Virus record (IMG/VR): IMGVR_UViG_3300042453_004077
Source: an uncultured virus (IMG/VR IMGVR_UViG_3300042453_004077)
Lineage: Duplodnaviria > Heunggongvirae > Uroviricota > Caudoviricetes
DNA length: 20,000 nucleotides
Strand: one strand, 5' to 3'
In this document: positions 12,979 to 20,000 of the stretch, in pieces
Position numbering within the stretch: position 1 is the first letter of the stretch
Layout of the letters: each line of letters begins with the position of its first letter
The notes under the pieces: generated by a model
The model's database searches: none
The model's input: the letters and a program-made list of their open reading frames with translations, nothing else
Told to the model about the DNA's origin: nothing
Made by a program: the position numbers and the translations under genes

Positions 12979-13743
12979 TTACCCCTTATCCATCGTCAAT
13001 GCAAAGGCCCTGGCGCCAGGGTAGTGCTCATTGAAATATCTCTTCACAGTGTCGACCATGATCCGTTGCTGTGCTACCAGTTCAAAGCCGTCGAGATGGA
13101 CAAGCTGAAGCAAGCCCTCGCTCTTTTCGTCTTCCGGGTCGAAGCATGAGATGACGCACCAGGCTTCGTCGATCTCCTGCCCGTACATTTGAGAAGCGGC
13201 CATGGAATAGGCGCCAAGCTGGCGCTTGTAATCGGCAAGCTGGTAGTCAGGCTTTTCTTTGAAGCTGGTCTTCCAGTCGATGAGCGCAGTGGTGCCGCTG
13301 GCCATTTTTGCCACCATGTCGAGAGTGCCGCTGTAGCCAATGGCATGCGCTTCGTCCCACCATGCCACAGCGCTTTCCACGAGTACTGGCTCGGCAATAT
13401 GCTCTAAGAATGGCTCAACAGTTTGAAAATAGATGGCCCACTCCAAGGCCTTTTCGAGATGGTGTTCAATATCCTCCCCATTGAACCAATCTTCAAGAAT
13501 GCCATGGAGCCAAGTGCCACGATTGGCAGCAAGGCGAGTGCGGCGATTTGCCTCATCATTCCCCACTCGCTTGCGCCAGTTCATGATGGCCATGATCTTG
13601 GCTACTGGCGCCATGGAAGAGAGCGTGGTGGTTACAGACGGAAGAACCATGCCCTCAGGAACGTTTGGAAACCCTTCGCAAATGTAGTGGCGACGATTGT
13701 TCAAGCTAATACGCTTGGGTTCAAAACGCTCGAACAAAGGCAT
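12979..13743 (-). CDS. PD-(D/E)XK exonuclease (phage recombination exonuclease)
   Basis: PSVTT, WRKRVG.EA, RGTWLH, GYSGTLD, LIDWKTS, QLGAY. ATG 13743 preferred. Confidence 0.9.
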   Translation of the reverse strand: MPLFERFEPKRISLNNRRHYICEGFPNVPEGMVLPSVTTTLSSMAPVAKIMAIMNWRKRVGNDEANRRTRLAANRGTWLHGILEDWFNGEDIEHHLEKALEWAIYFQTVEPFLEHIAEPVLVESAVAWWDEAHAIGYSGTLDMVAKMASGTTALIDWKTSFKEKPDYQLADYKRQLGAYSMAASQMYGQEIDEAWCVISCFDPEDEKSEGLLQLVHLDGFELVAQQRIMVDTVKRYFNEHYPGARAFALTMDKG

Positions 13744-13774
13744 GGTTCGGGACAGGAGGAGGTCATAGCAAGCC

Positions 13775-13803
13775 ACTATGACTCCTATCGGCTAGGAATG
13801 CAA
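13775..13803 (-). promoter_or_regulatory. Possible promoter for the exonuclease, with the -10 inside a hairpin
   Basis: Minus strand TTGCAT (13803-13798), 17-nt spacer, CATAGT (13780-13775); inverted repeat 13758-13785. Confidence 0.45.
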
Positions 13804-13922
13804 TAGCCTCCAGAACTGTAGTAACCAAGCGGACACGAGCCTTTCTTGATGATTGGCTCATTACAAGCCAACACGGGCGAAGCAAGGAGAACGATGGAGA
13901 AGAAGGCGAGAATGGTTTTCAT
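13785..13922 (-). CDS. Small secreted or lipoprotein-like Cys peptide (45 aa; not in ORF track)
   Basis: MKTILAFFSIVLLASPVLA|CNEPIIKKGSCPLGYYSSGGYCIPSR. Signal peptide; ATGA overlap with the upstream gene. Confidence 0.72.
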   Translation of the reverse strand: MKTILAFFSIVLLASPVLACNEPIIKKGSCPLGYYSSGGYCIPSR

Positions 13923-14170
13923 CGTGAAAGATCGTAGGAATCGACAATTGCGCCAGAATCACGGTCCCAGCAAGTGTGGCAGTCGGGGCATTGATAAGCA
14001 ATGCAACGATCCTGCTGCCAAGAGCTAATGGCAATCACTCGTGAGAACCATTTGCTATTTCCGAATAGCGAACGGCTTTCTTCTGGAATGGGCGTATCAT
14101 GCCAGAGTGTCCCGCACTCGGGACAGTGCGAGATGTCAGAGAACGAGCGAGGCTTGGGCAAACTGATCAT
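13919..14170 (-). CDS. Zinc-ribbon protein (83 aa)
   Basis: CPECG...YQCPDC; ATG 14170. Confidence 0.75.
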   Translation of the reverse strand: MISLPKPRSFSDISHCPECGTLWHDTPIPEESRSLFGNSKWFSRVIAISSWQQDRCIAYQCPDCHTCWDRDSGAIVDSYDLSR

Positions 14171-14200
14171 AGTCTTCGGAAAGAGGAGAACCTTCGTCGT

Positions 14201-14261
14201 CAAGAGCAATGGCGCCCGCAAAGAATCTTGCGAGCGCTGCTGCTGCCTTGTCTACTTTTTT
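14201..14261 (-). other. Candidate programmed -1 ribosomal frameshift signal
   Basis: In-frame A_AAA_AAG (14261-14255) directly before TAG, followed by a long imperfect hairpin (14250-14201). The -1 frame is open to 14136. Confidence 0.6.
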
Positions 14262-15223
14262 GCTTCTACGTAGGCCCTCACTGCCTCAATGGCGCTATCA
14301 ACACCGTTCAGGCACGCCTCGCGCAGTGCATCAATGTCTTTCCCCATTGTTGTCTTTGCCACTTTGATGCCTTCTTCCTTCACCCATGCAGACACCATGG
14401 CAGTAACTACATTGGCGAACATTGCTGCATCCTTGATCTCTTCGCCTTTTGACAGGCCAACAGTCTCAAGGGCACGCTTGCCAGCCATCATGCTTGACCG
14501 CTCGTCTGCATGAAAGAAGAGATTGGCCTTGCAGAAGCCAAGAAGAGCTCCCTTCCCATCGAACTCACTGGTTCCATTGGAGGCAGTAGTCCCATTGCTT
14601 CCAACTGCTGCATCAGGAGCTGCAGCTTCCTGCTCTGGCGCCTTTGCCCTCGTTGAAGACTGCGCAGTCGTCTGTTGGAGCGGGAGCCGGGGCGATTCCT
14701 TTTCATCGTCTGCTTTGGGAACGTCTTCACCTGCATAGAGCTTGAGACCTAAGCCAGTGAAAGTGGCAATGCACTTCACGGAAGCGCGTTGGATGTTGTC
14801 GCTCACTTGGCGAGCGTCAAGGGCCTTCACTGCATTGTGCTTGTTGTCCATCACTGGAAATACCAGCGCGGGTGTTCGCTTGATGCCATCTGTAAGATAG
14901 GGACGGAGCAACCAGCAGCCCTCTTGGCCGAACACAGGCCAGCCAGCTTCCTTTTCTTCAAAGGCCACGTAGACAGAAGGAAACTGTTCCTTCAAATAGC
15001 GGAAGGCAAAAGGCCACGAAAGATAGGACAGCCCCTTGTAGTTCTTCTCCACATGATCGCCAATCGGCAGCTCATAAGCCTTGGTGAAGGCTTCTGGAGA
15101 GATTTCGAGGGGGCTGAAATGGCCAAGCATGCGCTCAGTGAGCATTGCTTCGTTGACGGCAGTGACGGGCAGGGTCATGTCTTGGAAATGGGCAGGATCG
15201 TAAAAGAGAAGGGAAGAGCTCAT
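14252..15223 (-). CDS. Sak3/DUF1071-like single-strand annealing protein with extra C-terminal domain
   Basis: HVEK..GLSYLSW, PVMDNKHNAV, IQRASVKCIA..GLGLKLYAGED, then a Q/A/T-rich linker and a helical domain. Confidence 0.88.
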   Translation of the reverse strand: MSSSLLFYDPAHFQDMTLPVTAVNEAMLTERMLGHFSPLEISPEAFTKAYELPIGDHVEKNYKGLSYLSWPFAFRYLKEQFPSVYVAFEEKEAGWPVFGQEGCWLLRPYLTDGIKRTPALVFPVMDNKHNAVKALDARQVSDNIQRASVKCIATFTGLGLKLYAGEDVPKADDEKESPRLPLQQTTAQSSTRAKAPEQEAAAPDAAVGSNGTTASNGTSEFDGKGALLGFCKANLFFHADERSSMMAGKRALETVGLSKGEEIKDAAMFANVVTAMVSAWVKEEGIKVAKTTMGKDIDALREACLNGVDSAIEAVRAYVEAKK

Positions 15224-19905: not shown

Positions 19906-20000
19906 CGGATGCTACCTACAAATAAACCAACGATAAAACCAAAAAAGAAAAGCAGAAAAAGAAGTGAATCAAGTTTTTCAAGTGTTAGTTGATCAGTCAT
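19902..20000 (-). CDS. Small single-TM protein (32 aa; not in ORF track), MTD array
   Basis: MTDQLTLEKLDSLLFLLFFFGFIVGLFVGSIR. The ATG is at the window edge, so the ORF could extend further. Confidence 0.6.
   Translation of the reverse strand: MTDQLTLEKLDSLLFLLFFFGFIVGLFVGSIR

Follow-up and report, generated by a model that had tools for sequence, protein, structure and literature searches.

Does the annealase gene of an uncultured tailed virus (Caudoviricetes; IMG/VR record IMGVR_UViG_3300042453_004077) specify a single protein, or do some ribosomes change frame at its last codons and go on to make a longer one? We examined this question in a 20-kb stretch of the viral DNA, here called the window; coordinates are positions in it, and the annealase gene and the frameshift signals all lie on its minus strand. 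The gene ends with GAA GCA AAA AAG TAG, with the heptamer A_AAA_AAG in the X_XXY_YYZ phase, and an initial annotation of the locus had proposed a -1 shift at this point. Our analysis indicates that the 3' end of the gene very probably carries a dnaX-type programmed -1 frameshift that yields isoforms of 323 and 362 amino acids (aa), as judged from a conserved heptamer, a selected -1 frame, a covarying hairpin, and the absence of both a start codon belonging to that frame and an in-frame fusion. The features on which the argument turns, including an open reading frame (ORF) extension and a Shine-Dalgarno (SD)-like element, are as follows.

14252-15223, minus strand: zero-frame annealase gene, 323 aa (translation; PF06378; phrog_8492)
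14255-14261, minus strand: slippery heptamer A_AAA_AAG, in the annealase phase (sequence)
14252-14254, minus strand: zero-frame stop TAG, abutting the heptamer (sequence)
14136-14255, minus strand: putative -1 extension, 39 sense codons (14255-14139) and stop TGA at 14138-14136 (translation, pN/pS)
14201-14250, minus strand: RNA hairpin, putative stimulator (RNA folding, covariation)
14275-14279, minus strand: SD-like GAGGG, possible upstream stimulator (sequence; 13 nucleotides (nt) upstream of the heptamer)

In the mechanism that we propose, a ribosome at A_AAA_AAG would hold the lysine codons AAA in the P site and AAG in the A site, and a fraction of the ribosomes would slip back by one base as the two tRNA-Lys re-pair in tandem with A_AA and A_AA; at the G_GGA_AAG version of the site found in relatives, tRNA-Gly and tRNA-Lys would slip in tandem. 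The slip would be promoted by the stable hairpin beginning 4 nt downstream, and perhaps also, in the phage of the window and likewise in some lineages, by the SD-like element (here GAGGG, 13 nt upstream). Unslipped ribosomes would end at once at TAG and release the 323-aa protein. Those that slip would read GTA GAC and onwards for 39 further codons, giving a 362-aa protein in which the annealing core and the C-terminal domain are unchanged and a conserved tail is added. This tail is predicted to consist of an amphipathic helix of the pattern DxAAAxLAxxFAG, a short strand of hydrophobic residues, a turn at DGxPL, and an end of variable, acidic/hydrophobic sequence. That the slip actually occurs, and at a set ratio, we infer from the sequence features described below.

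The in-phase position of A_AAA_AAG immediately before the stop, as given in the initial annotation, was confirmed at 14261-14255. The heptamer AAAAAAG is not abundant in the window, with 2 copies on both strands against 5.7 expected. The second copy (19941-19947, plus strand) was set aside as antisense to plausible genes, and a GGGAAAG at 14338-14344 (minus strand) was set aside as out of phase. The site has the in-phase heptamer and the shift-prone A-site codon (A_AAG) of bacterial dnaX/IS3-type cassettes. According to the review by Atkins et al. (2016; PMC5009743), G_GGA_AAG is, like A_AAA_AAG, highly shift-prone in E. coli.

The conservation of the site was evaluated in relatives of the annealase. 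There are 697 database relatives at E <= 0.001, and protein lengths and C-termini were taken from the best 120 of these 697. All 120 are 290-325 aa long, none being near 362 aa, and they end in KK (51), KQ (52), KR, KH, KS or KL (14), GK (2), or YC (1). The DNA of relatives was collected from viral contigs in three scans. The first set comprised 104 loci, 2 of which lacked the gene end, and the remaining 102 gave 72 unique 460-nt contexts. A held-out set, seeded with the protein of phage S-CBS4, comprised 80 loci; 2 were without a C-terminal match and 2 without a gene end, and the rest gave 67 new unique contexts. Together with S-CBS4 itself, these sets make up 140 unique contexts (72, S-CBS4, and 67), and one locus (L010) is identical to the window at the site. 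S-CBS4, a cultured Synechococcus phage (69.4 kb; host Synechococcus sp. CB0101), is the closest named relative, with an annealase 53.7% identical over its full length that carries no annotation beyond "Sak-like ssDNA annealing protein".

All 140 unique contexts have A_AAA_AAG or G_GGA_AAG in phase, 0, 1, or 7 codons before the stop, which is far more than chance would give and is in line with the conservation expected of homologues if the initial annotation was right: the heptamer is either kept or replaced by another shift-prone one. In the first set (72/72), A_AAA_AAG abuts the stop in 32 contexts and lies one codon before it in 1, while G_GGA_AAG lies one codon before the stop in 36 and abuts it in 3. 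The held-out set (67/67) has only in-phase A_AAA_AAG, at 0 (25), 1 (40), or 7 (2) codons before the stop, and the S-CBS4 gene ends with TCA AAA AAG TAG. Over the 140 contexts, the configurations are therefore A_AAA_AAG+0 (58), A_AAA_AAG+1 (41), G_GGA_AAG+1 (36), G_GGA_AAG+0 (3), and A_AAA_AAG+7 (2). The zero-frame stop is TAG in 126, TAA in 10, and TGA in 4; since it lies 0-1 codon past the site in 138 of 140, ribosomes that do not shift would terminate before reaching the hairpin.

A maximum-likelihood gene tree was built from 137 of the 140 contexts, 3 without upstream sequence being omitted. Along its branches, the heptamer changed type at least 5 times and configuration at least 11 times, and it was never lost. 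The site is maintained as a slippery site and not as a particular sequence. The G-class sites point in the same direction at the level of single codons. All 39 read NNG GGA AAG, with CAG, GCG, GAG, AAG, or GTG as the preceding codon, whereas in the gene body 18.7% of glycines are encoded by GGA and 58% of lysines by AAG, with G at 23% of third positions; the synonymous positions at the G-class heptamer are fixed despite this codon usage.

The initial annotation had also described a -1 frame that is open for 39 codons to a stop at 14138-14136 and has no start codon of its own, and both points were borne out. In the window, this frame translates as VDKAAAALARFFAGAIALDDEGSPLSEDYDQFAQASLVL, the trans-frame product would amount to 362 aa, and there is no ATG, GTG, or TTG from the nearest upstream stop (11 codons before V) to the end. 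Counted from the shift site, the -1 frame stays free of stops over 21-43 codons (median 35) in the relatives (140/140 contexts). The conserved peptide is [VI]DLAAARLARAFAG...DGxPL, with the consensus [VI]DLAAARLARAFAGx[IV]xx[DN]xDGxPL, after which the sequence is variable.

The substitution pattern in this region has the signature of a translated frame. Over 21 codons in 73 contexts, the ratio of non-synonymous to synonymous differences (pN/pS, Nei-Gojobori proportions) is 0.487 in the -1 frame as compared to 0.969 and 1.187 in the other two, of which only the contrast between frames can be read since the proportions are uncorrected, the sequences are related, and pS is close to saturation. 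For the annealase itself, pN/pS over the last 60 codons is 0.665. Across the same 73x21 codons, there are 0 stop codons in the -1 frame and 46 and 78 in the others. Entropy at codon positions 1, 2, and 3 is 0.86, 0.65, and 1.32 (17 gap-free codons, 73 sequences), and the invariant Gly codon of the -1 peptide still varies at its third position (entropy 1.29). Judged by pN/pS and by this codon-position signature, the -1 frame is coding in the homologues and under purifying selection, as the initial annotation would predict.

A coding -1 frame might also be a separate small gene whose product is not fused to the annealase; translation would then begin at a start codon within that frame, canonical or not, or would arise by termination-reinitiation. 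Gene callers do call an orphan ORF of 30-77 aa at this place where an upstream ATG exists (P0125, P0126, P0128, P0132, P0133, and P0143), and some -1-frame ATG, GTG, or TTG lies upstream in 20 of 73 relatives. However, these starts are not conserved in position, no such codon is present between the upstream -1 stop and the site in the other 53 of 73 or in the window, and a separate gene leaves unexplained why an in-phase heptamer is kept in 140/140 contexts and has been swapped at least five times for another shift-prone one. We consider a separate gene highly improbable.

Neither the best 120 homologues, nor a profile of the extension, nor word-index searches revealed a natural protein in which annealase and tail are fused in frame. 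The profile gave 18 hits among 1.84 billion protein representatives, none of annealase length: 6 are orphan calls of the same ORF (30-41 aa), and of the other 12, the 2 that were inspected are repeat-derived translations, the remaining 10 being 720-3,675 aa long with 5-21 short matched stretches. When longer proteins carrying the tail were sought by word index, only P0142 and P0143 came up. P0142, a metagenome protein of 214 aa, is the sole case in which the tail stands in frame with a long upstream ORF; its residues 163-214 correspond to the -1 frame of the annealase 3' end plus the tail (GKALDPTAANLALCFNG...), and residues 1-160 match none of the gathered loci. It probably comes from a rearranged or chimeric contig. 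Searches with the extension gave nothing meaningful in Pfam, nothing below E 0.17 in the PDB, and no usable hit in the ESM Atlas. A search of genome contigs gave a single match, a fragment belonging to this phage group but binned in a Verrucomicrobia metagenome-assembled genome. This 3.66-kb contig (L195, positions 677-2871) carries a 286-aa annealase ending in VEAKK, the sequence GCA AAA AAG TAG, a GGCCCG...CGGGCC hairpin, a -1 tail, and an exonuclease, and is probably a mis-binned phage contig.

The hairpin at 14250-14201, also part of the initial annotation, was reproduced by RNA folding. Its core consists of 11 base pairs (bp), with 14237-14227 paired with 14222-14212 around a 4-nt loop, and imperfect outer stems span 14250-14201, beginning 4 nt past the heptamer. 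The fold of 14261-14190 has a minimum free energy of -26.6 kcal/mol (z = -2.82), a stability equalled by 1 of 200 dinucleotide shuffles. Among the relatives, the 48 nt past the heptamer belong to the most stable 5% of equal-sized segments of the same gene in 59 of 67 cases in the first set and 64 of 67 in the held-out set, and a recomputation over all contexts gave a stable hairpin in 127 of 140. We found three classes of hairpin. In the class of the window, the 3' arm lies on the FAG codons; the second has a GGCCCG...CGGGCC stem and an outer helix one turn earlier; the third has its stem 22 nt downstream.

Covariation was evaluated in 25 first-class and 27 second-class sequences out of 68 unique 75-nt regions, the remaining 16 having other registers or no clear stem. 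In both classes, 98% of the cells are paired, as compared to 30-55% when the partners are slid by 1-3 columns as a control, and compensatory double changes occur in 4 of 10 pairs (first class) and 7 of 13 (second class). The covariation scores are 0.412 against 0.180 in shuffles and 0.269 against 0.165, respectively, and none of 500 shuffles reached either value. This covariation is strong but is not independent proof, given that the arms themselves encode protein and that the sequences share ancestry. A conserved downstream RNA structure of the dnaX/IS3 type is thus present in two registers with compensatory changes, as expected if the hairpin of the initial annotation is maintained, with the core in the window at 17 nt. 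A search of 13900-14500 against Rfam, at E values up to 10, returned only a noise match to flg-Rhizobiales (E 6.2).

The hairpin could in principle be the only functional element, acting as a terminator, an attenuator, or an mRNA-stability or processing element, with the -1 frame as an untranslated by-product. In a loose scan, the window hairpin does look terminator-like, its 11-bp stem being followed by CATTGCTCTT; yet at least 5 T within 8 nt past the stem are present in just 24 of 140 contexts, and genes of the same module continue downstream on the same strand. Such an element would also not account for a stop-free -1 frame with a pN/pS of 0.49 against about 1 in the other frames, or for conservation that extends beyond the hairpin into the DGxPL motif, and an RNA element by itself has no need of an in-phase heptamer. 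We give a purely RNA-level function very little probability.

In dnaX/IS3-type cassettes, an SD-like stimulator about 10-14 nt before the heptamer is optional, dnaX being one that has it. The GAGGG of the initial annotation is present 13 nt upstream of the heptamer and may act in this way. SD-like elements are enriched at this place, but over all contexts only 44 of 140 have one, and the element is not universal. Between positions -20 and -9, SD-like 4-mers occur in 40 of 73 relatives as compared to 12.8% at control positions, and SD-like 5-mers in 33 of 73 as compared to 4.9%. Of the 127 contexts with a strong hairpin, 33 have the element, as compared to 11 of the 13 that lack such a hairpin, which suggests that the two stimulators may be able to replace each other; 7 of those 11 belong to one clade. 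It is worth mentioning that a clade with AAASLALCFNG tails (L047, L053, L054, L063, L064, L074, and L075), lacks the strong hairpin and has GGAGG about 10 nt before G_GGA_AAG in 7/7 members, where one stimulator may have been swapped for the other.

The long isoform could instead be of transcriptional origin, with RNA polymerase and not the ribosome slipping on the A run. A run of six A is present in 101 of 140 contexts; such a run is short for efficient polymerase slippage, however, the 39 G_GGA_AAG contexts contain three A only and keep the same -1 ORF, and a covarying downstream hairpin fits a stimulator of ribosomal slippage. Transcriptional slippage is, in our view, barely probable. An assembly or sequencing error in the A run, which would make the true gene a single 362-aa ORF or the downstream frame meaningless, is practically excluded: a run of six A is a classic place for indel errors, but the identical layout of stop and frames recurs in 140/140 contexts from many assemblies including cultured S-CBS4, 39 of them carry G_GGA_AAG without a long run, the best 120 homologous proteins have uniform lengths (290-325 aa), and contigs of runs X2, X3, and X9, each from a different other study, run through the site without any gap. 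Over 13900-14300, these contigs differ from the window by 0 positions (X2), 10 substitutions (X3), and 11 substitutions (X9); depth is below 5 in X2 and X9, and the contigs of X5 do not cover the site. The check for an extra A that the initial annotation called for thus found none in the independent assemblies.

Several observations weigh against a ribosomal frameshift as we propose it, or against parts of it. The 11-bp core in the window begins 17 nt after the heptamer, as compared to the 5-9 nt usual for stimulators, with only the weaker outer stems at 4 nt. A strong hairpin is lacking in 13 of 140 relatives. The sequences are related, and sequence counts overstate the number of independent events; the pN/pS values, too, are uncorrected proportions on such sequences, with pS near saturation. 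Finally, what speaks for a function of the tail is its conservation.

The frameshift tail could be a docking module that links a minority of the subunits of an annealase oligomer to the exonuclease or to a host replisome or recombination protein, a suggestion that we put forward tentatively; the initial annotation had already proposed that the extension might recruit a partner at a fixed ratio in the annealase ring. The exonuclease gene comes immediately after the -1 extension in several clades, its start coinciding exactly with the end of the tail, and S-CBS4 has no annotated DNA polymerase or single-stranded DNA-binding protein (SSB) among its 105 coding sequences; this context would fit a docking role. 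In an AlphaFold2 (AF2) model of the tail alone, residues 3-12 form a helix and hardly any other structure is seen (mean predicted local distance difference test score, pLDDT, 71).

A narrower version, which is speculative and rather unlikely, is that the tail would be a recruitment peptide tethering a fixed minority of annealase to the replication or recombination machinery of the host, the slip setting the stoichiometry of adaptor and non-adaptor subunits in the ring. The tail might, for example, imitate the tau tail and so reach DNA polymerase III, or contact the sliding clamp by way of its LPPxLF-like C-terminal ends. If this were true, strand annealing could be coupled directly to host DNA synthesis in a phage that, like S-CBS4, has genes for primase-helicase, exonuclease, and annealase, and none annotated for a DNA polymerase or SSB. 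Profiles of the extension matched no DnaX-like or other cellular protein among proteins, contigs, PDB, and Pfam. Clamp-binding-like ends (LPPxLF, QxSLxL) were considered as a universal feature of the tail and rejected, as [LFIM]F occurs within the last 9 residues in only 52 of 122 unique peptides.

The annealase itself was assigned from domain matches. Its residues 48-178 correspond to the SSAP_Sak domain (PF06378, E 1.6e-18; 67.1 bits against a cut-off of 22.3), and phrog_8492, "Sak-like ssDNA annealing protein", matches along its whole length (E 6.8e-43). These matches support the identification of the 323-aa product as a Sak-type single-strand annealing protein and uphold the family named in the initial annotation. 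The N-terminal SSAP_Sak domain (48-178) is followed by a low-complexity linker and a helical C-terminal domain (221-323; window 14252-14560), which AF2 models as a five-helix bundle with a pLDDT of about 88; the model of residues 1-218 is poor (pLDDT <50). Compared with 48,161 solved chains, the bundle gave a best Z of 5.4, which is uninformative for a helical bundle. In the phage records searched, this C-terminal domain co-occurs only with the annealase type of S-CBS4.

An exonuclease is the usual partner gene of an annealase, and this exonuclease-annealase pairing of phage recombination modules is present in the window on the same strand. The module continues 3' of the annealase with a CxxC ORF, a PD-(D/E)XK exonuclease, and a dCTP deaminase, and further along with genes for thymidylate synthase, a nucleotide kinase, an HNH endonuclease, an endolysin, and tail fibres; the primase-helicase gene is transcribed divergently from it. 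The two genes nearest to the annealase are listed here.

13919-14170, minus strand: CxxC...CxxC small ORF, zinc-ribbon-like (ORF list; weak Pfam matches)
12979-13776, minus strand: PD-(D/E)XK exonuclease, likely start ATG 13743 (PF12705, E 8e-08; phrog_298, E 3.9e-44)

The 81-nt gap between the annealase stop and the next ORF, to which the initial annotation had drawn attention, is real. The ATG of the small ORF (14170) sits 35 nt inside the -1 extension in a different frame. Pfam gave just weak, sub-threshold zinc-ribbon matches for this ORF, and it is missing in clades where the exonuclease comes straight after the extension (e.g., L071, L079, L080, and L093). The likely exonuclease start at ATG 13743 is based on relatives, which align only from residue 11-17 onward. 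In one related locus (L016, 2926-3720), the exonuclease ORF has an internal stop codon; the gene may be broken, or the assembly may contain an error.

Tail chaperones and some capsid genes are the textbook examples of programmed -1 frameshifting in phages. The mechanism proposed here is already known and its cassette is close to that of dnaX; what would be new, as far as could be found, is a phage single-strand annealing protein as its host gene. No description of a frameshift in a phage annealase was found in the full-text literature (subscription-only papers being outside its scope) or in the part of the Atkins et al. (2016) review that was consulted. The locus would add a well-supported case of a known recoding device in a recombination protein, with a group of cyanobacterial viruses appearing to produce its annealase both in the normal form and in one 20-40 residues longer. 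It also offers a natural variant series, with two interchangeable heptamers and several interchangeable hairpins, for dissecting stimulators in cyanobacteria, and it leads one to expect annealase oligomers of mixed composition, in which a minority of the subunits bear the tail, pointing to a partner yet to be found. For annotation, it would mean that every genome of this phage group, S-CBS4 included, misses the long isoform and presents the region as a gap or an orphan ORF. As Sak-type annealases are candidate recombineering tools for cyanobacteria, knowledge of both isoforms may matter.

The components of the proposed device are shared to different degrees with known systems. Lactococcus phage p2 Sak3 and other PF06378 annealases have the N-terminal annealase domain in common with the protein of the window; Sak genes of the lactococcal 936 group match residues 38-176 at about 31% identity, which covers just 36-45% of the protein. 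The C-terminal helical domain and the frameshift tail were seen only in the S-CBS4-like group, the 3' ends of the lactococcal genes lying outside the comparison. In phage T7, a -1 shift near the stop of gene 10A adds a short C-terminal tail to a minority of capsid subunits (10B). The annealase resembles this case in a -1 shift near the stop and a short tail on some subunits of a homo-oligomer, while the T7 product is a capsid protein and its shift site and signals differ.

The tail chaperones G/GT of lambda-like and other long-tailed phages likewise show a -1 slip near the 3' end and a minor, C-terminally extended product. They differ in being structural or assembly genes with a long extension (the T domain is about 150 aa in S-CBS4), as compared to a tail of 21-43 codons on a recombination gene. 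S-CBS4 (L197, NC_016766) contains what looks like an unannotated frameshift of this type at 19848-20749, where gp032 has an in-phase A_AAA_AAA at 20276-20282 and the -1 frame continues from there without interruption as far as the gp033 stop, a short distance before gp034, the tape-measure gene. On the basis of this arrangement and of the annealase, the phage group appears to use slippage on Lys codons at least twice.

The closest likeness is to dnaX of E. coli, which has the same heptamer A_AAA_AAG and a downstream stem-loop and which produces two isoforms of a DNA-metabolism protein from one gene at a set ratio; in the window, an SD-like element about 10-13 nt upstream adds to the likeness. 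In dnaX, the shifted ribosome stops almost at once, which makes the frameshift product the shorter one. In the annealase, the predicted frameshift product is the longer one, by 39 residues, and the protein is a phage annealase and not a clamp-loader subunit.

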